From: a virus | Lineage: Duplodnaviria > Heunggongvirae > Uroviricota > Caudoviricetes | Virus record (IMG/VR): IMGVR_UViG_3300032046_000003 | Location: 1 to 64,000 of that record | DNA length: 64,000 bases | Direction: 5' to 3' (one strand) | In this document: positions 19,772 through 32,153 of the stretch, in pieces | How the letters are laid out: every line of letters starts with the position of its first letter | Position numbering within the stretch: the first letter of the stretch is position 1 | Program-made: the position numbers and the translations under genes | Notes under the pieces: model-generated | What the model was told of the DNA's origin: nothing | The model's input: the letters and a program-made list of their open reading frames with translations, nothing else | Database searches by the model: none

Positions 19772-19773
19772 GT

Positions 19774-19929: not shown

Positions 19930-20006
19930 AGATAGCGGTAGAGCCTGAATAGCCCCGCTATACACATAAAAAATAGGAGGTGATTTTTTTCTAAGAGGTG
20001 ATATAG

Positions 20007-20598: not shown

Positions 20599-20875
20599 CA
20601 TATTCTATTTTACATTGCCCCTTATATCCGATAAGGATGTGACAGGGTGGAAAATAAGCCTGGGCAGAATATCGTGGTGGCTGTTGCTCTATACGGCGAC
20701 TAAATACAGCTGGGCATTGTGCAAAGACGCCCCCTCGACGCTGATAGCGGTAATGGGCTTTCTGCTCACGTATATATTCACAGGCAAGGTGCCCGACATG
20801 GCCACTGCGATTAAGGCCAAATTGAATGGCAACGGAAACTCCGCAAAGGGCGTAGACGACAACGCGGCGAAATAA
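20576..20875 (+). CDS. membrane protein
   Basis: Two or three TM helices. Confidence 0.3.
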   Translation: MLKTLISNIFYFTLPLISDKDVTGWKISLGRISWWLLLYTATKYSWALCKDAPSTLIAVMGFLLTYIFTGKVPDMATAIKAKLNGNGNSAKGVDDNAAK

Positions 20876-20876
20876 C

Positions 20877-21044
20877 ATGCTGTATGATTATGAATGCGCT
20901 AAATGCGGCAAGATAGAGATAGACAGAAAACTGGACGAAGAGATCAAAAAGTGCCCTGAATGCGGAAGCAAGATCAAAAGGCTGTACTTCCCGGTATCTG
21001 CCGTTTTCAAAGGCAAGGGGTTTTACAAGACGGACCACAAATGA
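20877..21044 (+). CDS. FmdB-family zinc-ribbon protein (55 aa)
   Basis: Own translation MLYDYECAKCGK...CPECGSKI; below track cutoff. Confidence 0.55.
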   Translation: MLYDYECAKCGKIEIDRKLDEEIKKCPECGSKIKRLYFPVSAVFKGKGFYKTDHK

Positions 21045-21161
21045 AAAAATTATGGGAAAAATTTTTAAACTGGTATTTTTGGAATGTTTTGGTTAAAAGA
21101 GACTTGGAATTTTGGAAAAAAGAAAACAGCCTCCAATGTGAGTTGAGGAAAACAATATAAA

Positions 21162-21467
21162 ATGAGAAGATTAATTTTTATATGTCTGCTGTGTCTGCTG
21201 TCTGTGCCCGCAAGCGGCATGATGTTGACAGGTTGGTATTACACAAGCGAGGCTTCGTATGAAAAAGACTGGCATCCCCAGAATGATTGTAAATATCTCA
21301 TAACTATTTACTGCCACACTAGGGAAGTTCAAGTGTCCAGGTGGCTGCCCGAGAGCAAATTCGAGGTTAAAGATTATAAAGAAAACGGATGCGGCGGCAT
21401 AATATTCTATACGACGAATAATGAGATAATAAATTACAATGGGATTTACACGATAGAAAAAAAATGA
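21162..21467 (+). CDS. secreted protein (signal peptide)
   Basis: MRRLIFICLLCLLSVPASG. Confidence 0.4.
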   Translation: MRRLIFICLLCLLSVPASGMMLTGWYYTSEASYEKDWHPQNDCKYLITIYCHTREVQVSRWLPESKFEVKDYKENGCGGIIFYTTNNEIINYNGIYTIEKK

Positions 21468-21566
21468 ACAAGCAAGAAAAGAAAATGTTTATAGAAGACA
21501 TGAAATGCCTCATTGTGCGAAGAATTTAACGTGATGGATGAAAGCATATAAAGCAAAGGAGACAAT

Positions 21567-21782
21567 ATGAAAGATTTTGATAAATTAGATTTCGGGGATA
21601 TATATATAATAAATGATAGAGGCTTGGGAATGTCTATATACAACAAAAGTGATAATAAAAAATTATGCATTTTCAATGAATTCGGATGTAGAGAATTAAT
21701 GTTATTTTTAACAAGAAAATTTATGCCTATAGGCGCCGAAGAACAGAACGACAAATTTGTATATGATATACACCAAAAATGA
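21567..21782 (+). CDS. hypothetical protein
   Basis: ORF after AAGGAGACAAT. Confidence 0.35.
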   Translation: MKDFDKLDFGDIYIINDRGLGMSIYNKSDNKKLCIFNEFGCRELMLFLTRKFMPIGAEEQNDKFVYDIHQK

Positions 21783-22294
21783 GAGTCACAAGCATTAAAT
21801 ATAACGAACCAGGAGTAAGCAAGTTTTTAATGGCGCTTGCTGAAAATTTCGCTCAAGATAACTTTGTGTATGTTAAGGAGTTCAAAAAACACCTTAAACT
21901 GGGCCCCAAAGATTCGGTAGACGTGATAGTCCTGTTGGAAGATGACAAGAAAATAACGCATCTGTACGACGGCTTGAACTACAAGCTGGGATTTAACGCC
22001 AAAGTGCCTACGTTTTTCAGGGGCAAAGACGGGAAGAGCCTCATGTTCCCGGGCGGATTTAACATATTGTTCGTTAATATAAATCAATTCAGAGCCTTGC
22101 ATCACAGATGGCATATAATCGCCGCAGTCGTAGAGAAAGATTTAATTTCAATAATTAGGGGCCGTATAATAGATGGCTATAAGGAAAGCATGCTGCTGGT
22201 GTTGGACCACAATTCTTATTTTAACGAGGACAAAGAGGTCATAGAGCTGTTCGCAGCCAAGCCCGCGAAAAAGGACTTACGCGAATATCTATGA
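21779..22294 (+). CDS. hypothetical protein
   Basis: ATGA-coupled ORF. Confidence 0.4.
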   Translation: MRVTSIKYNEPGVSKFLMALAENFAQDNFVYVKEFKKHLKLGPKDSVDVIVLLEDDKKITHLYDGLNYKLGFNAKVPTFFRGKDGKSLMFPGGFNILFVNINQFRALHHRWHIIAAVVEKDLISIIRGRIIDGYKESMLLVLDHNSYFNEDKEVIELFAAKPAKKDLREYL

Positions 22295-22497
22295 TAGACT
22301 ATAAAAAACTGAATATAAAGCCGAACACAACGATACACAAGGCGTTCACGGCGATAATCGCGCAATGCGAGCCCGAACTGGACATCAGGGGTATCAACAA
22401 AATATATGAAATAACTTTAAAAGACAGAGAATGCAGAATAGCAATGTTTATGATAGTTATGAAAGCATTAGAAGCAAACAAGGAGGAGCTAAGATGA
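22291..22497 (+). CDS. hypothetical protein
   Basis: ATGA-coupled ORF. Confidence 0.35.
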   Translation: MIDYKKLNIKPNTTIHKAFTAIIAQCEPELDIRGINKIYEITLKDRECRIAMFMIVMKALEANKEELR

Positions 22498-22604
22498 CAT
22501 TAAATAAATATAAAATAGACGTAAATGTCGTTGAAAAATCAACTGAAAACGAAGATAATGAAGAAGAGTCCTCCGTAGAAAAAAGTGAAGAAAATGAAAA
22601 ATAA
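22494..22604 (+). CDS. small acidic protein (MTLNKYKIDVN.. N-terminus family)
   Basis: Own translation; ATGA overlap with previous stop; below track cutoff. Confidence 0.35.
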   Translation: MTLNKYKIDVNVVEKSTENEDNEEESSVEKSEENEK

Positions 22605-22643
22605 TGTAAATCAGTGTATAGAAAAGATAAAGGAGGAAATGTT

Positions 22644-24749
22644 ATGAGCGTTGGACTTGACGTGGGAACTATGTTTGTTTGTTCAGCTAGGAAGACTCAG
22701 GACGGCAGAGTCTCATACAGGAAAGACAGGGATATATTCGTAGAGCTGCCGGCAGATACATCAAATTCTAAACAATTCATGGACATGGCGGGGGCAAAAT
22801 TAGTTACGATAGACAACAAGAATTACGCAGTAGGAGAAGAAGCAGTCAACTTTAGCTCTTTCTTCGGTGAGGATTTTAAGAGACCCTTAAAGAACGGCAT
22901 GATCAACCCCTCAGAAGAAGACTTGGCTATTCAGATATTAGACAACATTATAAGGGGTGTTTTAGGCGCTCCTAAACAGCCTGGAGAATTATGCGTGTTC
23001 TCAGTACCAGCAGAGCCTATAGACGAAAAGAGGAATGTCGTGTATCACCAGAAGACGCTTGAGTATTTAATTAAAAAGCAGGGGTTCACAGCAAAGCCTA
23101 TTAACGAATCTCTAGCCATAGTATACTCGGAACTGGCCAAGAACCAGCTTACGGGATTTGGTATATCATGGGGAGCAGGTTTATGTTTAAGTGGAGATAC
23201 AAAAGTGCCTTTACTTAATGGTCAAATTAAGACAATGAGAGAATTATCTGAAGAATATAAAGATAAAGAGTTTTGGTTATACTCCTGTAAAGAAGACGGG
23301 CAAATTGTTCCAGGGTTAGCTTCTAATCCTCGTAAAGTAAAAGAATCAGAAGTTATTAGAATATGGCTTGATAACAATAAATATTTAGATTGCACTCCAG
23401 ACCATAAAATAATGATGCGCAATGGTGAGTATAGAGAGGCTCAGATGCTAAAAGAAAATGATTCTATAATGCCTTTATATAAAGAAGTTGCGTATAAAGA
23501 AAACAAATATAATAAGGGATATTTGAGAGTAAAAAACAACAAAACAAATAGATTTAATTTTGTTCATAGATTGGTTGCTAGTTTCTTCAATAAAATACCT
23601 AAAAATTATATAGTTCATCATAATGATTTTAATAAACTAAATAATGAACCTAATAATTTATATATTTGTTCTATTATAAAACATGGAAAACTTCACAATG
23701 CCGATCATGTGAGGGGTAGAACATGGGAACAAATACTCGGTAGCGAAGAAAGGTCTGAAGAAAGAAAATTGAAACTTTCAAAATCATTAAAGAAAACATA
23801 TAAAGAGCATCCAGAAATTATAAAGAATGCTGCTGAAAAGAGAACAATAAAAAGAGAAGAAAGAATTTGCTTGTGTAAATGCGGTGAAACATTTATTTGT
23901 AAAGAAAATTCAAAACAAAAATATATACACGGGCATGCTATAAGGTTAAGAGAATATAATGAGAATGCTTATAAAAAGGTGATAGCTACTAGAAGATTGA
24001 AAGATAATTATAAACAATCGGATATCACTAAAAATAAAATAAGCGAAAGTTTAAAAGGCAATATTCCCTGGAATAAGGGCTTAAATGGTAATAATTATTT
24101 ATCTCATTATAAAAATGGAATAAAAAACCAAAACTCTTTATATAATCACAAGATTACCAAGATAGAAAAATTAAATAATAAAATTGAAGTTTATGATTTA
24201 TCAGTAAAAGATTATCATAATTTTGCCATAGACGCTGGAATATTTGTGCATAATTGTAATATAAACTTAAGCTATAAAGGATTTCCAGTGTTTGCTTTCT
24301 CGGTTGCTCGCTCAGGAGACTGGATTGACGAGCAGGTCAAGCAAGCCACTGGCAAGCCCACATCAGAAATTGCCGTTATAAAAGAGAATGAGCTTGACTT
24401 GACTAAAGAAGGAGACAACAGAACATTAAGATATTTGAAGAATTATTATGAGGAGTTGGTAGATTATGTTCTTCGCAACATTGTTAGGAAATTTGAACAG
24501 ACTAAAAGGATTCCTCCTACTTTGGATGCCAAGATGAAGACCGCGGAGGCGATACCGATCGTGCTGGCGGGCGGGACATCTCTTCCGAAAGGGTTCCCCG
24601 AGATGTTCAGGGACAGGTTGGAGAAGATAAACTTCCCGTTCAAGATCAGCGAGATTATAATCGCAAAGGAGCCTCTCTTCACGGTCGCTAAAGGCTGCCT
24701 GATAAGCGCAGAAGCGGAAGAGGGTATAACAGAGGCCAACAAGGTTTAA
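22644..24749 (+). CDS. actin-fold ATPase (ParM/MreB/Alp-like) interrupted by an intein
   Basis: Phosphate-1 GLDVGTMFV, phosphate-2 ISWGAG|..|NINL split by intein, adenosine motif VLAGGTSLP; ATG 22644 after AAGGAGGAAATGTT. Confidence 0.7.
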   Translation: MSVGLDVGTMFVCSARKTQDGRVSYRKDRDIFVELPADTSNSKQFMDMAGAKLVTIDNKNYAVGEEAVNFSSFFGEDFKRPLKNGMINPSEEDLAIQILDNIIRGVLGAPKQPGELCVFSVPAEPIDEKRNVVYHQKTLEYLIKKQGFTAKPINESLAIVYSELAKNQLTGFGISWGAGLCLSGDTKVPLLNGQIKTMRELSEEYKDKEFWLYSCKEDGQIVPGLASNPRKVKESEVIRIWLDNNKYLDCTPDHKIMMRNGEYREAQMLKENDSIMPLYKEVAYKENKYNKGYLRVKNNKTNRFNFVHRLVASFFNKIPKNYIVHHNDFNKLNNEPNNLYICSIIKHGKLHNADHVRGRTWEQILGSEERSEERKLKLSKSLKKTYKEHPEIIKNAAEKRTIKREERICLCKCGETFICKENSKQKYIHGHAIRLREYNENAYKKVIATRRLKDNYKQSDITKNKISESLKGNIPWNKGLNGNNYLSHYKNGIKNQNSLYNHKITKIEKLNNKIEVYDLSVKDYHNFAIDAGIFVHNCNINLSYKGFPVFAFSVARSGDWIDEQVKQATGKPTSEIAVIKENELDLTKEGDNRTLRYLKNYYEELVDYVLRNIVRKFEQTKRIPPTLDAKMKTAEAIPIVLAGGTSLPKGFPEMFRDRLEKINFPFKISEIIIAKEPLFTVAKGCLISAEAEEGITEANKV
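23184..24254 (+). mobile_element. intein (357 aa) with HNH endonuclease and CxCxCG zinc motif
   Basis: Starts CLSGDTKV (block A), ends ..FVHN followed by extein Cys (HN/C junction); internal HHNDFNKLNNEPNNLYICSIIKHGKLH (HNH) and ICLCKCGETFICKENSKQKYIHGH. Confidence 0.7.
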
Positions 24750-24759
24750 GGAGTAATAC

Positions 24760-25047
24760 ATGACAGATAAAATATGCTTTACTAAAGAAGAACTTATAAA
24801 AGAACATAGTAAATTGGTTCATACGCTTAAACAACAGCCTAATAAAACTACTGAATTAAAAGAAGAGGCCGCCGACCAGTCAAAAGAATTAGGTCGTTAT
24901 AAGAGAGGCCAAAAGTCAATTGAAGACCTGCCCTTGTTAAAGTCAGACGGTGGAATGAGTGGATTAAGCACGGCCCAGGGCAGCGGTGGGGCAGTGACGA
25001 CGGTAGGAATGGGAAGCTATCCCCGCAGAAGAAAGAAACGAAAATAA
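24760..25047 (+). CDS. hypothetical protein with basic C-terminal tail (RRRKKRK)
   Basis: ORF after AAGGAGTAATAC. Confidence 0.4.
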   Translation: MTDKICFTKEELIKEHSKLVHTLKQQPNKTTELKEEAADQSKELGRYKRGQKSIEDLPLLKSDGGMSGLSTAQGSGGAVTTVGMGSYPRRRKKRK

Positions 25048-25050
25048 CAG

Positions 25051-25079
25051 TTCAAATCTCCTGAAATATACATTATAGT
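25051..25079 (+). promoter_or_regulatory. sigma70-like promoter (CAGTTCAAATCT family) TTCAAA-17-TATAGT at head of tRNA array
   Basis: Shares extended motif with promoters at 29883, 49143, 51318. Confidence 0.5.
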
Positions 25080-25167
25080 ATATAAAGTATATACTTTGTG
25101 GTGTATAATAATAACGTTGTACAAAATCACAATTACGTGTTATAATATATATGAGGCAACAATTCAT

Positions 25168-25253
25168 CTGGGTGTGGGTCAACTTGGTAGATCACTCGGC
25201 TTGGGACCGAGAGCGTATACGCTTTAATGCAGGTTCAAATCCTGTCACCCAGA
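25168..25253 (+). tRNA. tRNA-Pro(TGG)-like carrying a 12-nt palindromic hairpin (AGCGTATACGCT) in the variable loop
   Basis: Hand-folded cloverleaf: 7-bp acceptor CTGGGTG/CACCCAG, D arm, anticodon loop CTTGGGA, T loop TTCAAAT; removing 25212-25223 restores a 5-nt V loop. Confidence 0.5.
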
Positions 25254-25264
25254 TAAATTAGTAA

Positions 25265-25343
25265 AAGTCGGCTTAGTGTAACGGTAGCATCCAGAATGCT
25301 CGCAAGAGCCAACTGGAGAGTGGTTCGATTCCACAGCCGAAAC
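25265..25343 (+). tRNA. tRNA-like sequence, aberrant fold (possible pseudo-tRNA)
   Basis: T arm GTGG-TTCGATT-CCAC and GCTCGCAAGAGC GNRA hairpin, but no clean acceptor/anticodon arms by hand. Confidence 0.3.
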
Positions 25344-25351
25344 GAATTTAT

Positions 25352-25423
25352 CGCAGGGTGGAGCAGTGGCAGCTCGCTGGGCTCATACCCCGGAGGTCGC
25401 GGGTCCGATTCCCGTCCCTGCTA
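25352..25423 (+). tRNA. tRNA-fMet-like (CAT), initiator features
   Basis: C1:T72 mismatch, three GC pairs in anticodon stem, loop CTCATAC, T loop TCCGATT. Confidence 0.7.
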
Positions 25424-25437
25424 TAAATTAAATATAC

Positions 25438-25505
25438 GGCAGAAGACGTAAGGTGGGATTCCTTACAGCGGCAATAGCTGCTTAGTTTAGTATAGAACGT
25501 CTGCC
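25438..25505 (+). other. structured intergenic RNA candidate (three-helix element)
   Basis: GGCAGA..TCTGCC outer stem enclosing GTAAGG-TGGGATT-CCTTAC and CAGC..GCTG hairpins. Confidence 0.3.
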
Positions 25506-25528
25506 ATTGAATTGAAAAGGAGATTGAA

Positions 25529-25603
25529 ATGAACTCGAACGATTGTTGTAGATTGACCTGGTGGCTGAATGGCCTAGGCGACGATCTGCAAAATCGTATA
25601 TGA
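25529..25603 (+). CDS. leader-peptide-like ORF MNSNDCCRLTWW.. (tandem Cys and Trp codons) preceding/overlapping tRNA-Cys
   Basis: SD AAAAGGAG 6 nt before ATG; TGT TGT at 25544-25549, 5 nt before tRNA-Cys 5' end. Confidence 0.5.
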   Translation: MNSNDCCRLTWWLNGLGDDLQNRI

Positions 25604-25626
25604 GAGTTCGATTCTCTTCCAGGTCT
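25555..25626 (+). tRNA. tRNA-Cys(GCA)
   Basis: Acceptor GACCTGG/CCAGGTC, anticodon stem ACGAT/ATCGT, loop CTGCAAA, T loop TTCGATT. Confidence 0.75.
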
Positions 25627-25639
25627 CAAAAAATAAATT

Positions 25640-25728
25640 AACTAGGTGTGAGGCCGACGGTAATGCGGCAGGGGTAGTTGAAGGCTACATAAGTGATGCT
25701 TCACATCAACCTTTTGTGACACCTAGTT
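25640..25728 (+). other. structured intergenic element bounded by perfect 10-bp inverted repeat AACTAGGTGT / ACACCTAGTT
   Basis: Exact IR read directly; internal GCCG..CGGC and TGATG..CATCA hairpins; not tRNA-like. Confidence 0.35.
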
Positions 25729-25750
25729 TAAAATAAGGAGTAATATAAAA

Positions 25751-25801
25751 ATGTTTTACAAGGGTTACACGACGACAACAACTACGGGGACCAGCAACTA
25801 A
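25751..25801 (+). CDS. leader-peptide-like ORF MFYKGYTTTTTTGTSN (six consecutive Thr codons) preceding tRNA-Thr
   Basis: SD AAGGAG upstream; ACG ACG ACA ACA ACT ACG at 25769-25786. Confidence 0.55.
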   Translation: MFYKGYTTTTTTGTSN

Positions 25802-25821
25802 GCTGGCGTAGTCGACTGCGT

Positions 25822-25902
25822 GCCGGTGTAGCTCAAAATAAAAGGCAGAGCAACGGTTTTGTAAACCGAAGGTTGGGGGTTCAAGTCCTCTCGCCGGCCC
25901 CA
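25822..25902 (+). tRNA. tRNA-Thr(TGT) with encoded CCA
   Basis: Acceptor GCCGGTG/CGCCGGC, anticodon loop TTTGTAA, T loop TTCAAGT, long D loop; CCA at 25900-25902. Confidence 0.6.
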
Positions 25903-25922
25903 AATTTAAAGGAGATTACAAA

Positions 25923-25979
25923 ATGAATTCGACGGATTATCATCATAGCACACTTGCCATCATGGTGAGCGTAGCTTAG
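25923..25979 (+). CDS. leader-peptide-like ORF MNSTDYHHSTLAIMVSVA (His-His) preceding/overlapping tRNA-His
   Basis: SD AAAGGAGATT; CAT CAT at 25941-25946; N-terminus and SD near-identical to the Cys leader. Confidence 0.5.
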   Translation: MNSTDYHHSTLAIMVSVA

Positions 25980-26036
25980 TGGTAAAGCGCCTGCCTGTGA
26001 AACAGGAGAGGTGAGTTCGATTCTCGCCGTTCACAT
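25964..26036 (+). tRNA. tRNA-His(GTG) with G-1
   Basis: Extra 5' G before GTGAGCG, anticodon loop CTGTGAA, T loop TTCGATT. Confidence 0.8.
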
Positions 26037-26041
26037 AAAAT

Positions 26042-26494
26042 ATGAATAAGAAAAAAGATATGGTAATTGTTTCTGGAATTGATGCTTTAAGCCCTTTACT
26101 TGAACAATATAATAAGCGGTTTAAAATTTATAGAGACAGATACTATAAGTTATCTAAGCAGAAAAAAGAAATGATTGATGTACATACAAGTGAAATTATA
26201 GGTATATATAGCCTTAAAAAAGAGTTTAAAAAAATTGGTTTTGTGGTTGAGGATATGAAAAAAACATTAGAGGATGACACTCTAAAACATATTCCTAAAC
26301 TTCGTAAATCTTTAATGAAAGATTTTAGCAAAGATATAATATTTAAGTTAAAACTCGACGAATTAGATAATTGTTTCGGGAAATCTAAAGTAATTTTAAC
26401 ATCGACATTTGAAACATATATTAGTGATGAAGCAGTAAAAAAAGATTTTATTTTAGTGGTGATATTAAAATTAACTGAATGGGTGAAAAAATAA
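26042..26494 (+). CDS. hypothetical protein embedded in tRNA array
   Basis: 150-aa ORF. Confidence 0.45.
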   Translation: MNKKKDMVIVSGIDALSPLLEQYNKRFKIYRDRYYKLSKQKKEMIDVHTSEIIGIYSLKKEFKKIGFVVEDMKKTLEDDTLKHIPKLRKSLMKDFSKDIIFKLKLDELDNCFGKSKVILTSTFETYISDEAVKKDFILVVILKLTEWVKK

Positions 26495-26508
26495 AGGAGA
26501 GTAGTAAA

Positions 26509-26622
26509 ATGAGTATCGAACCATATTATACTGAGGGTAGTTGGCAGAGTGGTCAATTGCAGCTGCCTGTAGAGCAGCCGGCTTTACGCCTTCAGAGGTT
26601 CGAATCCTTTACTACCCAATAA
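26509..26622 (+). CDS. leader-peptide-like ORF MSIEPYYTEGSW.. (Tyr-Tyr) reading into tRNA-Tyr
   Basis: SD AAAGGAGAG; TAT TAT at 26524-26529, 5 nt before tRNA-Tyr. Confidence 0.5.
   Translation: MSIEPYYTEGSWQSGQLQLPVEQPALRLQRFESFTTQ
26535..26618 (+). tRNA. tRNA-Tyr(GTA), class II (long variable arm)
   Basis: Acceptor GGGTAGT/ACTACCC, anticodon stem GCTGC/GCAGC loop CTGTAGA, T loop TTCGAAT. Confidence 0.8.
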
Positions 26623-26634
26623 ACATAGGAGAAC

Positions 26635-26730
26635 ATGATAATGGACACAGACGATAATAATCGAATTAGTAGCAACTCATTCCTGAGTAGAACAATGGTA
26701 GTTCAATGCACTGTTAATGCATCTATGTAG
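26635..26730 (+). CDS. leader-peptide-like ORF MIMDTDDNNRISS.. (Asp x3, Asn x2) preceding tRNA-Asn and tRNA-Asp
   Basis: SD TAGGAGAAC; GAC ACA GAC GAT AAT AAT at 26644-26661. Confidence 0.5.
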   Translation: MIMDTDDNNRISSNSFLSRTMVVQCTVNASM

Positions 26731-26751
26731 GTTCAATTCCTGCCTCAGGAG
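26681..26751 (+). tRNA. tRNA-Asn(GTT)
   Basis: Acceptor TCCTGAG/CTCAGGA, anticodon stem ATGCA/TGCAT loop CTGTTAA, T loop TTCAATT. Confidence 0.8.
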
Positions 26752-26764
26752 TTGGTCGTTACCT

Positions 26765-26836
26765 GGGGTCATGGTATAACGGTTATTACGACTGATTGTC
26801 GATCAGTAAATCGGAGTTCAATTCTCCGTGGCCCCG
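26765..26836 (+). tRNA. tRNA-Asp(GTC)
   Basis: Acceptor GGGGTCA/TGGCCCC, anticodon stem ACTGA/TCAGT loop TTGTCGA, T loop TTCAATT. Confidence 0.8.
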
Positions 26837-26908
26837 TTAAAGCGTTGTTTTAATCTAGTTGATAGGGTAAAAAATTAAAGCTTATATAAGAGTATCAACA
26901 CAATACAT

Positions 26909-26980
26909 TCTCGAGTAGTTCAGCGGGAGAATAACTCCCCTACAAGGAGAAGGTCGCTGGTTCGATCCCAGCCTCGAGAA
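26909..26980 (+). tRNA. tRNA, anticodon TAC (Val?) with unusual C33
   Basis: Acceptor TCTCGAG/CTCGAGA, T loop TTCGATC; anticodon loop read as CCTACAA. Confidence 0.5.
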
Positions 26981-26985
26981 TTTAT

Positions 26986-27056
26986 GGGCCAATAGTTCAG
27001 TGGTAGAACACTCGGCTCATAACCGAAATAGCTTGGTCCGATTCCAGGTTGGCCCA
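26986..27056 (+). tRNA. tRNA(CAT), Ile2(LAU)-like (or elongator Met)
   Basis: Acceptor GGGCCAA/TTGGCCC with C4:G69, C5:G68 and anticodon-stem C29:G41 (TilS-type identity set); loop CTCATAA. Confidence 0.7.
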
Positions 27057-27080
27057 GTTAAATTAAAGGAGATGGTAAAA

Positions 27081-27152
27081 ATGATAGACATAGGAAACAT
27101 AAATATATATAACATTATTGCCGTATCCTGGTCGAGCTCAAGTAGTAATTAA
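27081..27152 (+). CDS. leader-peptide-like ORF MIDIGNINIYNIIAVSWSSSSSN (Ile x7 incl. 4 ATA, Ser x5, Trp) between tRNA-CAT and tRNA-Trp
   Basis: SD AAAGGAGATGG; own translation. Confidence 0.4.
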   Translation: MIDIGNINIYNIIAVSWSSSSSN

Positions 27153-27160
27153 TTACTTTT

Positions 27161-27231
27161 GGGTTCGTAGTTTAATGGAAAAATCATCGTCTCCAAAACG
27201 ATAGTTGTAGGTTCGATTCCTACCGAGCCCG
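27161..27231 (+). tRNA. tRNA-Trp(CCA)
   Basis: Acceptor GGGTTCG/CGAGCCC, anticodon loop CTCCAAA, T arm GTAGG-TTCGATT-CCTAC. Confidence 0.8.
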
Positions 27232-27245
27232 TAATATTTGGAGAG

Positions 27246-27848
27246 ATGGCAGAATGGCTATTGCGCTAACTAAGGAGTAATATGGCTAAAAAGGGTTGCA
27301 TTCCCTGGAATAAAAATTTAACCAAAGAAACAGACGAGAGAGTTAAGAAAAACGGAGAAAATGTTAGTAAAGCAATGACTGGTAGAAAATGGAAACCAAA
27401 AACTTCAGAATCGGCTTTATTACGAATTGAAAGAATTAAAAACGCTGCTAAGAAATATGGAAGAATGGGCGGATATAGAGAAAGAAGTGGTAGGGGTAAA
27501 CAAGGCAGATATAAAGGATATTGGTGTCAAAGTAGTTGGGAATTAGCTTATGTTATTTATAATTTAGAACATGCAATAAAATTCGAAAGGAATAAAGAAG
27601 GGTTTGAATATATTTTTGAAGGCAAAAAACATCTTTATTTCCCAGATTATATAGAAAATAGTTTTTACGTAGAGATTAAAGGTTATTTAACTAAACAAAT
27701 GCAAGTAAAAATAGCTAGTTTTAATAAACCATTAAGAGTTTTGCGAGAGGAAGATATACGGTCTATTTTAAATTATGTGACTCAAAAATATGGTAATGAT
27801 TTTATAAGACTATATGAGCCGTAGGTTCGAATCCTTCTCTCTCCGCCA
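27246..27848 (+). tRNA. class-II (Ser-like) tRNA gene interrupted by a 0.56-kb insertion carrying a homing-endonuclease ORF; 5' part 27246-c.27283, 3' part c.27806-27848 (GCCA end)
   Basis: 5' GGAGAGA-TG-GCAGAATGGCTATTGC and 3' GTAGG-TTCGAAT-CCTTC-TCTCTCC-G-CCA; acceptor halves perfectly complementary; closely resembles neighbouring tRNA-Ser(GCT). Confidence 0.45.
27282..27824 (+). CDS. homing endonuclease-like protein (NUMOD-like N-terminus + PD-(D/E)xK-like nuclease) inserted in tRNA gene
   Basis: GCIPWNKNL motif; FPDYIENSFYVEIKG (PD..ExK); SD AAGGAG. Confidence 0.6.
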   Translation: MAKKGCIPWNKNLTKETDERVKKNGENVSKAMTGRKWKPKTSESALLRIERIKNAAKKYGRMGGYRERSGRGKQGRYKGYWCQSSWELAYVIYNLEHAIKFERNKEGFEYIFEGKKHLYFPDYIENSFYVEIKGYLTKQMQVKIASFNKPLRVLREEDIRSILNYVTQKYGNDFIRLYEP

Positions 27849-27851
27849 ATT

Positions 27852-27936
27852 GGAGAGGTGGCCGAGCGGTTTAAGGCGCTTGTTTGCTAAACAAGTATAT
27901 CGAAAGGTATCATAGGTTCAAATCCTATTCTCTCCG
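27852..27936 (+). tRNA. tRNA-Ser(GCT), class II
   Basis: Acceptor GGAGAGG/TCTCTCC, D loop GCCGAGCGGTTTAAGGC, anticodon loop TTGCTAA, long V arm, T loop TTCAAAT. Confidence 0.8.
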
Positions 27937-27954
27937 TTTTTTTAAAGGAGTAAT

Positions 27955-28734
27955 ATGCCTGGTACTTCAAATGGTAATTATGGAAGAAGTATGTATTCCG
28001 ATCCAAAATGGAGAAGAAAAATAGCAGTAGGACATGTATATAAGAGAATAAATATTAAGAAAATATGTTCTAAATGCAATAATATATTTATAATTGAAAG
28101 AAAAATAGATAAAAATGGTAATGAAGTAGTTTATAATAAAGAAAAGAAATATTGTTTTAGGAAGTGTGCCAATTCTCACGTTCAAACAAAAGAAATAAAT
28201 GATAAAAGAGCAATAAAATTAAGAAAAAAACAGCATAAAATACACTATATAGAGTGTAAATTTTGTCATAAAATTTTTATAGGTAAACTTAAAAGTAGAT
28301 TTTGTAGCAGAAAATGTGTTAACTTAATGCGTAGAATTGAACTTGATGAATATAATAAATACAAAGCAAATTGTCAGTTTAAATTTTCTTTAAATGAATA
28401 TAAAAATAGATTTAATTTTTTATTAATTGAAAAGTTTGGTTGGTATAAGGCTAAAAATAGAGGTAATAATTTAAAAGGTATTTCAAGAGATCATATTATT
28501 TCTATAAATTATGGATTTGAAAATAATATTTCTCCTGAAATTATTTCTCATCCGGCTAATTGTCAACTATTAAGACATAACGAGAATATTTCTAAGGGTA
28601 AAAAATGTGGCTTAACACTAGATCAGCTATTGGACAAAATAGCAAAATGGGATTGTGGTGTAAATGGGAACACTTCTGACTTGCAATCAGAGGATCCGAG
28701 TTCGAGCCTCGGCTATTCCAATAATAGCGTATGA
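27955..28734 (+). CDS. HNH homing endonuclease with Cys-rich zinc fingers; ORF reads through tRNA-Ala at its 3' end
   Basis: CSKCNN..CFRKCANSH zinc motifs; GISRDHIISINYG..NCQLLRHNENISKG HNH; true stop may be earlier than track. Confidence 0.6.
   Translation: MPGTSNGNYGRSMYSDPKWRRKIAVGHVYKRINIKKICSKCNNIFIIERKIDKNGNEVVYNKEKKYCFRKCANSHVQTKEINDKRAIKLRKKQHKIHYIECKFCHKIFIGKLKSRFCSRKCVNLMRRIELDEYNKYKANCQFKFSLNEYKNRFNFLLIEKFGWYKAKNRGNNLKGISRDHIISINYGFENNISPEIISHPANCQLLRHNENISKGKKCGLTLDQLLDKIAKWDCGVNGNTSDLQSEDPSSSLGYSNNSV
28649..28720 (+). tRNA. tRNA-Ala(TGC) (G3:U70 present; one acceptor mismatch)
   Basis: Acceptor GGGATTG/CTATTCC, D stem GTGT/ACAC, anticodon stem TCTGA/TCAGA loop CTTGCAA, T arm CCGAG-TTCGAGC-CTCGG. 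Confidence 0.6.
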
Positions 28735-28754
28735 AATTAAAAAAGAGAATTAAA

Positions 28755-28883
28755 ATGAGAGTATGGGGATTGCCTTGCACAAGGAAAGTTGGTACTCAAG
28801 TCATAGAATCTAAGAAGAATAAACTTAATACGCGTAGAGCACTTAAGAGGAAACTTCAAAAAGAAATTGCGGGTATAGTATAA
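28755..28883 (+). CDS. small basic ORF (42 aa) ending inside tRNA-Gly
   Basis: Own translation MRVWGLPCTRKVGTQ..; weak SD. Confidence 0.25.
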   Translation: MRVWGLPCTRKVGTQVIESKKNKLNTRRALKRKLQKEIAGIV

Positions 28884-28940
28884 TTGGAAGTATACTTGCC
28901 TTCCAAGCAGGTGGAGCAGGTTCGAAACCTGTTACCCGCT
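28870..28940 (+). tRNA. tRNA-Gly(TCC)
   Basis: Acceptor GCGGGTA/TACCCGC, anticodon loop CTTCCAA, T loop TTCGAAA. Confidence 0.8.
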
Positions 28941-28946
28941 TAAAAT

Positions 28947-29017
28947 GCGGATGTAATTTAATGGTAGAATTCCTGGTTGCCAACTAGGATATACGGGTTC
29001 GAGTCCCGTCAACCGCT
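28947..29017 (+). tRNA. tRNA-Gly(GCC)
   Basis: Acceptor GCGGATG/CAACCGC (1 mismatch), anticodon loop TTGCCAA, T loop TTCGAGT. Confidence 0.7.
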
Positions 29018-29043
29018 CAAATAAAGTAGAAGGGGGTGTTAAA

Positions 29044-29136
29044 ATGGTAGACGCTGCCCCAGAAGATTACAAGTTGGCTGAGGAACAGATGAACGAAGAG
29101 TTATTAAATTTAGCAGAAGTAGAAATAATAGAATAA
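29044..29136 (+). CDS. leader-peptide-like ORF MVDAAPEDYKLAEEQMNEELLNLAEVEIIE (Glu x8)
   Basis: Own translation; no Glu tRNA seen downstream in window. Confidence 0.35.
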   Translation: MVDAAPEDYKLAEEQMNEELLNLAEVEIIE

Positions 29137-29145
29137 GGAGATAAA

Positions 29146-29202
29146 ATGTTCCAATTAGTTATAAAGCGAAAACGCAGGAGATGCGCTCGAAAGAGCGCAT
29201 AA
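29146..29202 (+). CDS. leader-peptide-like ORF MFQLVIKRKRRRCARKSA (Arg x5 incl AGG AGA, Lys x3) preceding tRNA-Arg(TCT) and tRNA-Lys(TTT)
   Basis: SD AAGGAGATAAA; 3' end folds as TGCGCTC-GAAA-GAGCGCA hairpin. Confidence 0.5.
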   Translation: MFQLVIKRKRRRCARKSA

Positions 29203-29210
29203 TGCGTCAC

Positions 29211-29283
29211 GCCCATATAGCTCAATTGGATAGAGTATCGGATTTCTAATCCGAAAATGTAAGTTCAAGTCTTACTATGGGCA
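29211..29283 (+). tRNA. tRNA-Arg(TCT)
   Basis: Acceptor GCCCATA/TATGGGC, anticodon loop TTTCTAA, T loop TTCAAGT. Confidence 0.8.
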
Positions 29284-29291
29284 TACTTTTT

Positions 29292-29362
29292 GTGCCTATA
29301 ACTTAATGGTAAAGTAGGTGGCTTTTAACCATCAAATGAAAGTTCGATTCTTTCTAGGCACA
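29292..29362 (+). tRNA. tRNA-Lys(TTT)
   Basis: Acceptor GTGCCTA/TAGGCAC, anticodon loop CTTTTAA, T loop TTCGATT. Confidence 0.8.
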
Positions 29363-29370
29363 TAAAAAAT

Positions 29371-29877
29371 ATGAAATTTAAATACATAGATCAATACATA
29401 TCTAAAAATAGAGAAGATAGAAGAAAACATTTAAATCTTAAAGAAAAGTGCATTGAAATAGGCGGAAATTCTACGAAATTTCAAGCTTTATTGGCTTACT
29501 TTCTTAAAACGACTATTCCTATTAACAAGAAAATTAACTTATGCCATGCATGTAATAACGGTAAATGTTCAAATGTTAAACATTTATATTGGGGCACCTC
29601 ACAAGACAATGTTCAAGATATAAAAGAAAGTGGTAAATGGAGCTCTTTATATTCAAGAACTGTTAAAAAATATGGTATAAATTATATGAAAGATATTTGT
29701 AGGAAAAACGGCCAAAATAATAAAGGCAAAAGATTATTGAAAAAAGATGAAATAAATAGAAGATTAAATTTAATAGAAAAAATTAATTTAAATGAATGGG
29801 GTTCTACAAATAAAGTAGCAGAAGTATTAAATATTAGTCACACTCAAGCCAGAAGATTTATTAATAAATATATATAA
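29371..29877 (+). CDS. HNH-type homing endonuclease with C-terminal HTH
   Basis: LCHACNNGKCSNVKHLYWGTSQDN; C-terminal WGSTNKVAEVLNISHTQARRF. Confidence 0.6.
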   Translation: MKFKYIDQYISKNREDRRKHLNLKEKCIEIGGNSTKFQALLAYFLKTTIPINKKINLCHACNNGKCSNVKHLYWGTSQDNVQDIKESGKWSSLYSRTVKKYGINYMKDICRKNGQNNKGKRLLKKDEINRRLNLIEKINLNEWGSTNKVAEVLNISHTQARRFINKYI

Positions 29878-29882
29878 ATCAG

Positions 29883-29911
29883 TTCAAATCTTCCAATATA
29901 TGCATTATAAT
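29883..29911 (+). promoter_or_regulatory. sigma70-like promoter TTCAAA-17-TATAAT; predicted start at or next to the ATG (leaderless)
   Basis: -10 ends 7 nt before ATG 29918. Confidence 0.5.
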
Positions 29912-29917
29912 ATATAT

Positions 29918-31096
29918 ATGGAAAACAAACTAAGTAAATTTATAATCGAAAGACATAAGAAGGATGGGACAGAAATTGCCCCAGTCAAGGTTAAGAAAGG
30001 CTATTGGATAGAGCTTCATAAAGAGAAGCAAGAAGGATTCATTTATTATCCTGGAACATTGGTACCCCACATACACTTCATGGAATGCAAAAAACACGAC
30101 AAGTATAACCAGCTCAAAGGCGGACCGATGCCTTGGACCAATCCCGAGACTATTGAGATAAACAAAGAGCTTTTGGCCACGCCTAATATATATGAAAAGA
30201 TGCTGAAAGCACAGAAAGATAACGACACTAAAACAATCGAATTCCTTTCAAAGCCTCTGGTGACCTGGGTATGCCCTCAAACATTAGGTAAAAAATCAAT
30301 ATATGCAGCTGATGTCACAGTGCATAATCGAAACGCCAAGAGTGAATATGTATTCGATCAAATAGATAGATTCGAAGAAGGCATAAAGAGGCTTGAAGGC
30401 ATATACAATAAAGAACGAGTAAAGACAACTCGAGGAATTGCCGCATTGGTCAACTTGCTATCAGCCAAATTCTGCTTCAGGGTCGGGAACAACACAGACA
30501 AAAAGACCTCCGGCATAGGAGTCACGACATTCAGGCCGCACAACATAAAGGTGGATAAGCGTAGCATAATACACTTTGTATTCAGAGGCAAGAAGAAAGT
30601 CAAGTGGCACAAGGTGCTGAGGCCTCATACAGACCTCGAGAATAAAATGTATGATGATTTAGTAGCCCTTAAGAACAGAGACAAAGAGTTCCTATTCACG
30701 AATGGTGAAAGAGTAGATAGTGGAGTAGCAAACGAACTGTTCAGAGAGGCAATGGATGTCAAAGAAGACGAAAGAGACTTCTTGTCATTCCACAGTTGGA
30801 GGCATTGGAACGCCTCTAAAGCCATCACTGAACAGGTCGCCAAATTGAGACTCAACAGGAAGCTTAATAAGATAATGAGAAGCAAACGTTCAGGCAACAA
30901 GGACCTCTCCAAGGCGCGATTAATAAATAAGAGTATAAATACATTATTCAAGAAGGTTGCAAAGATTCTGAATGATACGCCGGGAGTTGTTAAGTCGACC
31001 TACGGTGGAGCTCAACCGATCAGGAAATTATATGAGGACAATGGAATAAAATACGACGAGAAACGCAGATCGTTTGACAAGGAGATAATAAAATGA
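29918..31096 (+). CDS. type IB DNA topoisomerase (poxvirus/bacterial type)
   Basis: Blocks VHNRNAKSEY, ..FCFRVG, GVTTFRPHNIKV..FVFRGKKKV, EFLFTNG, HSWRHW, VKSTYGG align with vaccinia TopIB conserved blocks (recalled from memory). Confidence 0.65.
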   Translation: MENKLSKFIIERHKKDGTEIAPVKVKKGYWIELHKEKQEGFIYYPGTLVPHIHFMECKKHDKYNQLKGGPMPWTNPETIEINKELLATPNIYEKMLKAQKDNDTKTIEFLSKPLVTWVCPQTLGKKSIYAADVTVHNRNAKSEYVFDQIDRFEEGIKRLEGIYNKERVKTTRGIAALVNLLSAKFCFRVGNNTDKKTSGIGVTTFRPHNIKVDKRSIIHFVFRGKKKVKWHKVLRPHTDLENKMYDDLVALKNRDKEFLFTNGERVDSGVANELFREAMDVKEDERDFLSFHSWRHWNASKAITEQVAKLRLNRKLNKIMRSKRSGNKDLSKARLINKSINTLFKKVAKILNDTPGVVKSTYGGAQPIRKLYEDNGIKYDEKRRSFDKEIIK

Positions 31097-31698
31097 CACT
31101 TAAAAAATATACGATTAATATAAATTCAGCGGAAAAGTCTCAAAAGCAGCATATCAGAGTGTCCTCAACAGGAAAGCCATTTAGTGCCGGTAAAGGATCA
31201 AGTAAAATTATTGGGACTACTAGAGATGGTAGAACCAATGTTATAGCTAATACTTCTCGTGTTTCATATGATGAATTTATAGCATCATCACAGAAAAAAA
31301 ATGAATATAATGATACTAAATCTTTTATAAAAGACCCTATAATGGAAGCAATTGATGAAGCTATTATGGCAAAAGAAGACTGGAAGAGTTTAGTAGACAA
31401 TTTGGACTATGATATAGTTGAACAAATAATGACTGAAAACGAAGTACCAGAAAAGACTGCTCAAAATATCGTTGATGAAGCTAAAAAAGAATTGATTGAA
31501 TATGGTAATGAAAGAATGAATGCTAAAATAATTAAATTTGACGACCTTATGGATTCAGTTAAATATGTGGCTAAACCAATGAGAAGCGGTGAAGAACCTT
31601 TCTATATGTTTAGATTAGGTGGCAAAAGCTATAGGGTTCAGGACACTGCAGAAGTGCCTAAGATTGCTAAAAAAATGGGCTATAAGATAATATACTAG
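31093..31698 (+). CDS. protein of KQHIRVSSTGKPFSAGKG family (MTLKKY N-terminus)
   Basis: ATGA-coupled; shares 25-aa module with ORFs at 34641, 50316, 52520. Confidence 0.5.
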   Translation: MTLKKYTININSAEKSQKQHIRVSSTGKPFSAGKGSSKIIGTTRDGRTNVIANTSRVSYDEFIASSQKKNEYNDTKSFIKDPIMEAIDEAIMAKEDWKSLVDNLDYDIVEQIMTENEVPEKTAQNIVDEAKKELIEYGNERMNAKIIKFDDLMDSVKYVAKPMRSGEEPFYMFRLGGKSYRVQDTAEVPKIAKKMGYKIIY

Positions 31699-31744
31699 TC
31701 CCCTGCAAACGTTCAACCGGAGTGACCCCAGAGGCATCTAATAA

Positions 31745-31942
31745 ATGATTAAATCAGACATATACCTTATTGATATAGCCAGGACCTCAAAAAGACATCA
31801 TGACATTATAGACAGATATTTCAATCCTAATCATGCTTGTTTTGGATGTTTGCCTTTAGCGTACGCGACCTTAAAGAACGCATGCGAGATTAGAGGATAT
31901 AATATAGAAGAGATACTAAAGGAGCTCAATAATGACTCTTAA
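31745..31942 (+). CDS. hypothetical small protein
   Basis: ORF. Confidence 0.3.
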   Translation: MIKSDIYLIDIARTSKRHHDIIDRYFNPNHACFGCLPLAYATLKNACEIRGYNIEEILKELNNDS

Positions 31943-32153
31943 AAAGTTTAAATTTGATGAAAATTCAACCAAAATAGAAAAATCTAAAACTTATTTTTGC
32001 AATTCTTGTCAAGAGAATCACGAAATTGATAGCGCAATTGGTAAGAAACACGCTAACAAAATTAAAAACAAAATGAAACCAAAATTAGAAAGTAAAGAAT
32101 TTAGAGCTGGTTATATGAAAGAAAAATTAGAGGACACAGTTAATGAAAGATAA
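31932..32153 (+). CDS. small zinc-binding protein (MTLKKFKFDEN N-terminus)
   Basis: Paralog of 14267 ORF (FCNSCQENH). Confidence 0.4.
   Translation: MTLKKFKFDENSTKIEKSKTYFCNSCQENHEIDSAIGKKHANKIKNKMKPKLESKEFRAGYMKEKLEDTVNER

Follow-up and report, generated by a model that had tools for sequence, protein, structure and literature searches.

What might short open reading frames (ORFs) be doing directly ahead of phage tRNA genes when they carry tandem codons for the very amino acid of the next tRNA? The question is raised by an array of 18 tRNA genes in IMG/VR virus record IMGVR_UViG_3300032046_000003 (Caudoviricetes), of which we analyzed positions 1 to 64,000 (hereafter, the window). The window lies within a 178-kb tailed-phage contig (ENA ERZ27247683; GC ~35%) that encompasses portal, capsid and sigma-factor genes, with all genes on the + strand, and the array is located between a volactin-like gene, which ends at 24749, and a topoisomerase IB gene, which starts at 29900. 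A reading of the letters without database searches (the sequence-only reading) had proposed that at least six ORFs in the array, each led by an AAGGAG Shine-Dalgarno (SD) site, are attenuator-like leaders through which translating ribosomes sense charged tRNA. Our analysis identified seven candidate leader units of this kind, with codons that match the adjacent tRNA in every case.

We enumerated every ATG that follows an SD-like motif in the array, which yielded eight mini-ORFs of 16–37 codons and two larger ORFs. Seven of the mini-ORFs contain in-frame cognate runs, for Cys, Thr, His, Tyr, Asn+Asp, Trp+Ser+Ser and Arg+Lys, respectively (Table 1). The six units of the sequence-only reading are all among them, each quoted run being present and in frame with an ATG located 5–9 nt after AGGAG, and the seventh, the Trp/Ser unit at 27081–27152, had been missed. 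The AAGGAG form of the SD site does not apply to the Asn/Asp unit, where the site is AGGAG. All of the anticodons assigned earlier were recovered by ARAGORN at the positions given in Table 1, apart from tRNA-Thr(TGT), which was found by Rfam and not by ARAGORN. The units share a common plan, namely, a ribosome-binding site and ATG followed by 3–15 codons, a cognate run for the next one to three tRNAs, and the tRNA itself within 5–33 nt, with the cognate codons occupying leader positions 4–22.

The runs differ in length and composition. Doublets are found in the Cys leader (TGT TGT, 25544–25549, −11/−8 from tRNA +1, leaving a gap of 5 nt to tRNA-Cys), in the Tyr leader (TAT TAT, 26524–26529, with the same −11/−8 geometry and also 5 nt ahead of its tRNA) and in the His leader (CAT CAT, 25941–25946, −24/−21). 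The Thr leader carries ACG ACG ACA ACA ACT ACG (25769–25786) and an additional ACC at 25790, seven Thr codons altogether. In the group leaders, codons for every member tRNA are present: GAC ACA GAC GAT AAT AAT (26644–26661, the Asn doublet at −24/−21) for Asn+Asp, TCC TGG TCG AGC TCA AGT AGT (27126–27146) ahead of tRNA-Trp, tRNA-Ser(TGA) and tRNA-Ser(GCT), and AAG CGA AAA CGC AGG AGA (29164–29181) for Arg+Lys. The geometry recurs as well, with the ATG of both the Cys and Tyr leaders at −26, the doublets of the His and Asn units at identical distances, and the stops of the Trp and Arg leaders both at −11, which would bring the front of a ribosome into contact with tRNA +1. The near-identical N-termini of the Cys and His leaders (MNSND and MNSTD) are real. 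A further TGG TGG that had been cited in support of the Cys leader sits in the body of tRNA-Cys (25560–25565) and is thus no evidence for it. Likewise, the overlap of leaders with tRNA bodies holds for Cys, His, Tyr and Asn and does not extend to Thr, Trp and Arg, where the stop is 23, 11 and 11 nt upstream, respectively; in the Thr unit, it falls in the loop of a hairpin (25791–25806) that is followed by a second one (25807–25820), and in the Trp/Ser unit, it is likewise inside a hairpin loop. The eighth mini-ORF, at 29044–29136, has no cognate tRNA nearby but contains 8 Glu in 29 codons (P ~1e-3), including two EE doublets; it is present in one near-identical strain fragment (L024), is absent from another (L021), and may be an orphan leader left by the loss of a tRNA-Glu gene.

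To quantify the association, we derived a null from the amino-acid composition of 55 long ORFs in the window and calculated how likely each leader would be to contain a cognate doublet ahead of the tRNA; this probability ranged from 0.001 (Cys) up to 0.3. A cognate doublet ahead of the next tRNA or tRNAs is observed in 7 of the 8 SD-led mini-ORFs, and the Poisson-binomial probability of at least 7 is ~1e-9. Exhaustive permutation of ORF-to-tRNA assignments gave p = 5e-5, both for the doublet count and for summed cognate residues. The earlier judgment that chance is an unlikely explanation is borne out by these values, and a coincidental match of runs and tRNAs is excluded. Across ~60 unrelated IMG/VR viral loci, a cognate doublet was detected in 1 of 31 SD-led ORFs abutting tRNAs; the small ORFs of the T5 tRNA region were not enriched for cognate codons; and three matched AT-rich phage arrays (34 tRNAs), each with a homologue, beside tRNA-Ala, of the homing-endonuclease-like gene of this array, contained no cognate leaders.

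The initiation signals and the codons themselves both point to translation. AGGAG occurs 102 times on the coding strand against 21 times on the opposite strand, and wherever AGGAG occurs in the array outside a tRNA (9 sites), an ATG comes 5–9 nt later; judged by these counts, AGGAG is a genuine initiation signal in this phage genome. Synonymous codons are freely mixed in the runs, which include all four Thr codons, both Lys codons and both Asp codons. Moreover, the Ser run joins two unrelated codon families, TCC, TCG and TCA with AGC, AGT and AGT, ahead of tRNA-Ser(TGA) and tRNA-Ser(GCT), and the Arg run joins CGA and CGC with AGG and AGA ahead of tRNA-Arg. Such mixing of unrelated families (TCN with AGY, CGN with AGR) leaves decoding as the sole explanation. 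That the mini-ORFs are translated leader ORFs, with regulatory codons that track the adjacent tRNA, is strongly supported by these sequence features.

Four strain fragments from other samples (L021–L024), 97.5–99% identical to the window, allowed us to examine which parts of the units are maintained. Every run codon is kept in these fragments. The Thr leader of L022 and L023 differs by three amino-acid replacements (F2L, G13R, S15G), all outside the run, and the seven Thr codons are unchanged. The KRKRRR run AAG CGA AAA CGC AGG AGA is the same in the window, L021 and L024, with the hairpin that follows it being GCTCTT-AAT-AAGAGT in the two fragments, where it folds equally well, and TGCGCTC-GAAA-GAGCGCA in the window; the latter hairpin had been noticed earlier and was indeed found at 29181–29198, within a longer stem. 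In L021, where the tRNA-Arg anticodon is ACG rather than TCT and the leader has a different N-terminus (MIQLSNM...), the leader holds codons for both isoacceptors, and its predicted pairing still involves the same 5' portion of the tRNA. Finally, an intact tRNA-Ser(TGA) directly follows tRNA-Trp in L021 (287–377) and L022 (1526–1616), which accounts for the TCN codons in the Trp/Ser leader.

In the window, the same tRNA-Ser(TGA) gene is split by a 555-bp insertion that takes the place of the anticodon and variable arms and encodes a 180-aa ORF (27282–27824) with its own AAGGAG and a PD-(D/E)xK-like motif (FPDY...VEIKG). Because Rfam detected no group I intron in the split gene, this tRNA looks to have been invaded by a homing-endonuclease gene and lost.

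We then asked whether comparable units occur elsewhere. Comparison with GenBank phages using megablast, blastn and tblastn returned tRNA-level matches only, and pattern searches of IMG/VR with the shared start of the Cys and His leaders and with the unusual D loop of tRNA-Thr gave no match. Apart from L021–L024, the collections searched contained no lineage closer than relatives at 47–60% protein identity. A scan for an SD site, two His codons and a T arm matched mostly inside neighboring tRNAs, none of them tRNA-His; with three His codons after the SD site, 0 of 37 tRNA-linked matches were to tRNA-His. Five Thr codons with a T arm identified no tRNA-Thr in IMG/VR, and the same pattern with an SD site, run over 185,579 bacterial and archaeal genomes, gave 0 of 5 tRNA-linked matches to tRNA-Thr. 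The scan for an SD site and four Thr codons, in contrast to its matches beside other tRNAs, which lacked an ATG-led run ORF among those that we read through, produced two matches before tRNA-Thr (L156 and L159), both of them ATG-led Thr-run mini-ORFs that end just ahead of tRNA-Thr(TGT). In L156, an unrelated high-GC tailed phage, the ORF at 2345–2298 on the minus strand encodes MRTAFTTTTLTTTTR, ending in a stop 9 nt before a Thr(TGT)-Gln-Met-Val array (2288–1910), with the stop in the loop of the GC hairpin ACGCGC-TAG-GCGCGT and a −35/−10-like pair just upstream. L159 (2532–2642) is a weaker case, with MFRTTTTL and a stop 9 nt before tRNA-Thr(TGT). A relaxed screen of 827 short ORFs adjoining 669 tRNAs yielded 11 cognate-rich ORFs against ~7 expected. 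Judging from these matches, the cognate-leader principle seems to be rare, yet not confined to one genome. Elsewhere on the contig that contains the window, candidate leaders for other tRNAs (Leu-TAG at 16144; Phe, Gln and Leu-TAA in the region L145, contig 18930–39352) were considered and none was convincing; neither a 62-aa ORF rich in Gln nor a 22-aa ORF containing three TTA codons was significant.

How, then, might a ribosome on such a leader affect the tRNA that follows? Co-folding of leader and tRNA predicted leader–tRNA pairs that displace the cloverleaf. In the Cys unit, leader positions 25539–25555, which include UGU UGU, are complementary to the anticodon arm of tRNA-Cys (16 bp), and ATGAACTC is complementary to the T arm. 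In the Tyr unit, the leader mimics the acceptor 5' strand, and the predicted partners of GAGUAGUAAA and AUCGAACC are the acceptor 3' strand and the T arm. In the Trp/Ser leader, GAGCUCAAG pairs with the acceptor 5' strand of tRNA-Trp in the model, and the run is a mimic of the acceptor 3' strand. The Arg/Lys run forms the 5' arm of a long hairpin (29167–29211, with the inner stem at 29181–29198) that extends to tRNA +1 (z = −5.6). In a 7 × 7 matrix of leaders and tRNAs, the free-energy difference (ddG) was −5.7 kcal/mol for cognate versus −1.3 kcal/mol for non-cognate combinations, and the true assignment was the best among 5040 (p = 2e-4). The Cys, Tyr, His and Trp leaders each surpassed shuffled leaders, with ddG of −13.8 kcal/mol versus −1.5 for Cys, −7.9 versus −0.3 for Tyr, and −7.9 with its own tRNA versus −2.1 for His.

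The same models indicate that an occupying ribosome could reverse this effect. The predicted acceptor-stem probability is ~0.95 for the tRNA alone, 0–0.07 with the free native leader in six of the seven units (Asn being the exception), and 0.4–0.9 with shuffled leaders. When the ribosome was modeled as a 27-nt footprint on the cognate codons, this probability was 0.94–1.0 for Thr, Trp and all three Arg alleles, with partial recovery in the His unit. For tRNA-Trp, the free leader lowered the value from 0.95 to 0.00, and a ribosome on the last Ser codon brought it back to 0.95. For tRNA-Cys, the value of 0.996 for the tRNA alone fell to ~0 when the native leader was free, compared with 0.87 for shuffled leaders, and with the A site on the first TGT, 6 of 7 acceptor pairs re-form in the minimum-energy fold.

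The interpretation that we favor, with moderate confidence, is that each of the seven mini-ORFs acts in cis as a leader peptide, sensing the supply of cognate aminoacyl-tRNA and gating the folding or 5' maturation of the adjacent tRNA precursor. A leader free of ribosomes would by this pairing occlude the 5' strand of the acceptor stem as well as the RNase P site, such that the tRNA misfolds and matures poorly. When cognate charged tRNA is scarce, whether through a codon-usage mismatch with the host, starvation or host anticodon nucleases, the ribosome would dwell on the run and hold the leader in its mRNA channel, and the cloverleaf could then form and be processed, providing homeostatic feedback. 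With ample supply, the ribosome would depart quickly, the anti-tRNA structure would form and maturation would be poor. Since no terminator was identified, the output would lie in the folding or processing of RNA and not in the termination of transcription. In this model, the sign of the response, with low supply leading to more tRNA, is assumed.

Several considerations weigh against this interpretation. The case is built on sequence statistics, variation among strains and folding models, and these models omit tRNA tertiary structure, modifications and co-transcriptional folding, all of which favor the cloverleaf. No significant leader–tRNA pairing was predicted for the Asn/Asp unit, and the ddG of the Thr unit was not significant compared with shuffled leaders. 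A folding switch in the first tRNA leaves the codons for the second and third tRNAs of a group without an obvious explanation. The tRNAs for Pro, Met (two genes), Ala and Gly (two genes) and an odd tRNA at 26908 have no leader. A search of related genomes for the units, as the sequence-only reading had proposed, showed that near-identical strains keep the runs, whereas relatives with 47–72% identity (topoisomerase IB homologues; metagenome and IMG/VR loci) have no SD-led leaders, and their arrays are located upstream of the volactin gene. With the runs unseen in relatives at 47–60% protein identity, deep conservation cannot be demonstrated. Lastly, a ribosome stalled at the second Cys or Tyr codon would cover tRNA +1 to +4 and would block RNase P, possibly giving the opposite sign of control.

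The odd tRNA among the leaderless ones (26908–26981) is labeled 'Cys (aca)' by ARAGORN and has an unusual anticodon loop; if read as CCUACAA, this loop would make it a tRNA-Val(UAC) with C32 and C33.

The last of the objections leads to an alternative with the same parts and the opposite or a different logic, which we regard as unlikely. Translation of the leader would require the tRNA made downstream, and transit of the ribosome into or up to the tRNA body would decide the fate of the precursor, as feed-forward or a quality check, or a stalled ribosome would block RNase P or shield the precursor from 5'–3' or endonucleolytic decay. Four leaders enter the tRNA body and one of these spans all of tRNA-Tyr, a ribosome that has the second Cys or Tyr codon in its A site would leave its footprint over the first four tRNA positions, and the Trp and Arg stops would set a terminating ribosome exactly against tRNA +1, all of which suits such a scheme. 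However, positive feedback on a scarce tRNA has no evident benefit, and wherever an ORF continues into a tRNA, its codons simply follow from the tRNA sequence up to whichever stop happens to come first. Nor would a plain roadblock need the significant leader–tRNA complementarity.

Transcription control by the leader, either as classical attenuation or in a Rho- or pause-dependent form, such that the position of the ribosome decides whether the polymerase enters the tRNA group, is in our view improbable. Attenuators of the trp/his/thr type are recognized by just such leader ORFs with cognate runs, and one leader per 2–3 tRNAs suits read-through control better than the folding of a single tRNA. 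The Thr, Trp and Arg leaders, furthermore, finish in hairpins that carry the stop within or next to their loops, and the hairpin of L156 is followed by TTTC. Nevertheless, a terminator scan of 24700–29950 detected no hairpin with a U-tract between any leader and its tRNA, only two weak sites that are both inside tRNA genes and do not exceed shuffled sequences, and the 5 nt that separate run from tRNA in the Cys and Tyr units leave no space for a terminator, so trp-type transcription control is unsupported. A Rho-dependent variant is countered by the shortness of the leaders and by the structured tRNA downstream, a poor Rho substrate. Thus, the attenuator-like sensing of the sequence-only reading survives in part: the codons of the leader ORFs track the adjacent tRNA, as indicated by statistics, ribosome-binding sites, strain-conserved runs and mixed codon families, and the sequence supports a post-transcriptional leader–tRNA pairing switch in place of trp-type read-through.

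Could the leaders function purely as RNA, that is, as anti-tRNA or processing structures, perhaps through codon–anticodon-like pairing, with the ORFs incidental? The complementarity between leader and own tRNA is significant, and UGU UGU of the Cys unit pairs with the anticodon loop and stem. However, every one of the seven runs is in frame with an ATG that has its own SD site, the runs are kept as amino-acid and codon families in a manner inexplicable by pairing (six Ser codons from two families, Arg codons of the CGN and AGR types, and four Thr codons), and the multi-amino-acid leaders match tRNAs 80–700 nt away without pairing to them, which makes a purely RNA-based function highly improbable. 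Finally, although phage tRNA regions, that of T5 among them, often contain small ORFs, and the initial examples were picked by eye, we consider it scarcely credible that the ORFs encode functional micropeptides, given that their non-run residues differ between near-identical strains and their C-terminal parts are translated tRNA sequence, or that they reflect coincidence or selective reading, given the objective enumeration and the control arrays (1/31 and 0/34).

The sensor interpretation gains perspective from comparison with known systems. The leader ORFs of amino-acid operons and pheST (trpL, hisL, thrL, leuL, pheL, ilvL and pheM) are, like the phage leaders, short, SD-led, located directly upstream of the controlled genes and furnished with tandem cognate codons. 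Attenuators read ribosome dwell via alternative RNA structures, as is predicted for the phage leaders, and the Asn+Asp and Arg+Lys group leaders resemble thrL and ilvL in mixing the codons of several amino acids. However, attenuators control biosynthesis enzymes and synthetases, whereas the phage leaders precede tRNAs, the sensed molecule itself. Attenuators also have a terminator and antiterminator with a U-tract, both missing from the phage units, and, unlike in trp-type attenuators, the phage runs are mostly doublets, the competing structure includes the tRNA body or 5' end, and four leaders overlap the downstream gene. Translational attenuation of ermC and cat provides a precedent for the post-transcriptional step, in that a paused leader ribosome frees a sequestered element without a terminator, as would be the case in the phage. 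There, the ribosome-binding site of a protein gene is freed and the pause depends on a drug and the nascent peptide, whereas the phage units would free the tRNA acceptor stem or RNase P site, and the pause would result from a shortage of cognate aminoacyl-tRNA; the phage leader peptides have no conserved arrest motif and vary in sequence between strains.

T-box riboswitches share with the phage leaders tRNA specificity through codon–anticodon matching, a matching codon in the leader, and regulation of the same amino-acid system. They differ in binding uncharged tRNA without a ribosome, by means of Stem I, the specifier loop and the T-box sequence, and in controlling a terminator or an SD site, whereas the phage leader codons are translated in frame and have no match to the Rfam T-box family (RF00230). 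More generally, an Rfam cmscan of 15000–32000 at E ≤ 1 detected tRNAs and weak opposite-strand plastid-UTR (untranslated region) matches only, and no T-box or known leader. In T5- and T4-like tRNA regions, as in this array, tRNAs lie amid small ORFs, homing endonuclease genes and small structured RNAs, and some ORFs overlap tRNA ends. The tRNA-adjacent ORFs of T5, however, have 27–114 codons, no cognate enrichment and no sequence homology to the phage leaders. The bar minigenes of lambda are SD-led phage mini-ORFs, the effect of which also hinges on one tRNA species; they consist of 2–3 codons, act by peptidyl-tRNA drop-off that depletes a host tRNA, and are unlinked to tRNA genes, whereas the phage leaders have 16–37 codons and abut the cognate tRNA gene. 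In bar-type ORFs, which have about 2–6 codons, it is the last sense codon that decides tRNA sequestration. To our knowledge, leader-peptide attenuation, a textbook mechanism, is known solely for genes that make or charge amino acids, and we know of no tRNA genes governed by cognate-codon leader peptides. A full-text literature search retrieved no description of cognate-codon leaders ahead of tRNA genes and, together with the direct tests on T5 and other arrays, agrees with the earlier claim that this arrangement had not been described.

Table 1. Positions of the leader units, their tRNAs and associated features in the window
Feature	Positions	Strand	Details
Promoter-like site, TGTACA-17-TG-TATAAT	25118–25146	+	10/12 consensus matches, extended −10; upstream of the first tRNA of the array
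Cys leader	25518–25603	+	AGGAG 25518, ATG 25529; ORF MNSNDCCRLTWWLNGLGDDLQNRI (MNSNDCC...); runs into tRNA-Cys
tRNA-Cys(GCA)	25555–25626	+	ARAGORN; Rfam 56.8 bits
Thr leader	25735–25801	+	AAGGAG 25735, ATG 25751; ORF MFYKGYTTTTTTGTSN
tRNA-Thr(TGT), long D loop	25822–25899	+	Rfam 52.4 bits
His leader	25910–25979	+	AGGAG 25910, ATG 25923; ORF MNSTDYHHSTLAIMVSVA (MNSTDYHH...); enters tRNA-His by 15 nt
tRNA-His(GTG)	25965–26035	+	ARAGORN; Rfam 64.9 bits
Tyr leader	26495–26622	+	AGGAG 26495, ATG 26509; 37-codon ORF MSIEPYYTEGSW... (MSIEPYY...); traverses entire tRNA-Tyr
tRNA-Tyr(GTA)	26535–26618	+	ARAGORN; Rfam 55.7 bits
Asn/Asp leader	26627–26730	+	AGGAG 26627, ATG 26635 (or 26641); ORF MIMDTDDNNRISSNS... 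(MIMDTDDNN...); enters tRNA-Asn
tRNA-Asn(GTT)	26680–26752	+	ARAGORN and Rfam; leader common to Asn and Asp
tRNA-Asp(GTC)	26764–26837	+	ARAGORN and Rfam; leader common to Asn and Asp
Trp/Ser leader	27067–27152	+	AGGAG 27067, ATG 27081; ORF 27081–27152 MIDIGNINIYNIIAVSWSSSSSN (...AVSWSSSSSN)
tRNA-Trp(CCA)	27161–27231	+	ARAGORN; Rfam 64.1 bits
tRNA-Ser(TGA), disrupted	27240–27848	+	5' part 27240–27268, insertion 27269–27823, 3' part 27824–27848
tRNA-Ser(GCT), third tRNA in the Trp/Ser group	27851–27937	+	ARAGORN; Rfam 59.3 bits
Glu-rich SD-led mini-ORF	29044–29136	+	30 codons, MVDAAPEDYKLAEEQMNEELLNLAEVEIIE; no cognate tRNA-Glu nearby
Arg/Lys leader	29136–29202	+	AGGAG 29136, ATG 29146; ORF MFQLVIKRKRRRCARKSA; stop 11 nt ahead of tRNA-Arg
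tRNA-Arg(TCT)	29211–29283	+	ARAGORN; Rfam 74.7 bits
tRNA-Lys(TTT)	29291–29363	+	ARAGORN; Rfam 71.2 bits

The array as a whole also offers several observations on its origin and expression. ARAGORN called 16 of the 18 tRNAs (25167–29363), the tRNA-Thr(TGT) detected by Rfam and the disrupted tRNA-Ser(TGA) make up the rest, and Rfam confirmed the others. One tRNA-Met reads as an initiator type, with a C1-U72 mismatch and three G-C pairs beside the anticodon loop, features that indicate a bacterial host. The promoter-like site at 25118–25146 suggests that a single polycistronic transcript of tRNAs and leaders may start there. In the spacer between the Pro and Met tRNAs (25300–25345), a T-arm-like hairpin, GTGG-TTCGATT-CCAC, is probably the relic of a decayed tRNA gene. 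Two structured, non-coding elements noted earlier between units both fold, one as a cloverleaf-like three-hairpin junction (25438–25505, z = −3.4) and the other as a long closed multi-branch fold (25640–25728, z = −2.2); they match no Rfam family and are reminiscent of RNAs annotated in the tRNA region of T5 as small and stable or as tRNA-like. The ORFs inside the array had no match in Pfam, and no homologues were found for a 150-aa ORF located there.

Substitutions between the near-identical strains cluster in the tRNAs, with the anticodon stems being the most variable positions. In L022 and L023, three base pairs of the tRNA-Thr anticodon stem (25855–25867) are swapped in a compensatory manner and loop position 32 is changed, with the same anticodon; eight changes between strains are found in tRNA-Gly(GCC) (28956–29004), and the anticodon and T arms of tRNA-Arg are exchanged between strains (TCT versus ACG). 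Diversifying selection on the anticodon arms, or recombination affecting them, could have produced these patterns; diversification of this kind has been proposed as an escape from host anticodon nucleases. In L023, an additional tRNA-Ile(GAT) and tRNA-Leu(CAA), without a leader, directly follow tRNA-Asp (L023 1120–1279, after the position of window 26841), which shows that the array is fluid.

A 259-aa HNH-like ORF (27955–28734) between tRNA-Ser(GCT) and tRNA-Ala, the 3' end of which reads through tRNA-Ala, is a presence/absence polymorphism, missing in L024 (252–417). Two of its closest homologues, P0027 and P0029, from two unrelated phages, end in or beside tRNA-Ala(TGC) in the four loci read (L308 6001–6768, L309, L310 6001–6687 and L311), suggesting a homing endonuclease family aimed at the tRNA-Ala gene. 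The volactin-like (actin-fold) gene upstream of the array (22614–24749) contains an intein that has HNH and NUMOD3 motifs; in three related phages (L007–L009), the homologous gene is without the intein, the exteins being contiguous in DNA, and in another (L010), only part of the segment is missing. Further upstream, the region L145 encodes an RNA ligase (PF09414; 599–1786), an RNase T-like exonuclease (5762–6256), a Fic-domain protein (7472–8062) and an AAA_33 kinase (10001–10423, equivalent to window 627–1049). A ligase and a kinase form a pair of the type that T4 employs to mend nuclease-cut tRNA.

Among anticodon nucleases, colicin E5 targets the tRNAs for Tyr, His, Asn and Asp, colicin D that for Arg, and PrrC that for Lys, and the leader-bearing tRNAs of the array include all six. 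We put forward, tentatively and as a possibility that we hold with less confidence than the sensor function itself, the broader proposal that these tRNA genes are under ribosome-read feedback from their own charged level, with the precursor as the competing structure and maturation as the output, that the phage would in this way switch on those tRNAs that are lacking in the infected cell, for example, after anticodon-nuclease cleavage, and that the principle arose at least twice, as L156 would imply. If true, the loop between tRNA supply and tRNA production would be closed, and these units would represent the first gene-specific ribosomal regulation of tRNA maturation. At ~120–170 nt, the units could be reused as amino-acid- or tRNA-specific sensors. 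For the biology of phages, it would bear on how tRNA arrays are deployed, whether for codon-usage compensation or for countering host defenses that cleave tRNA.

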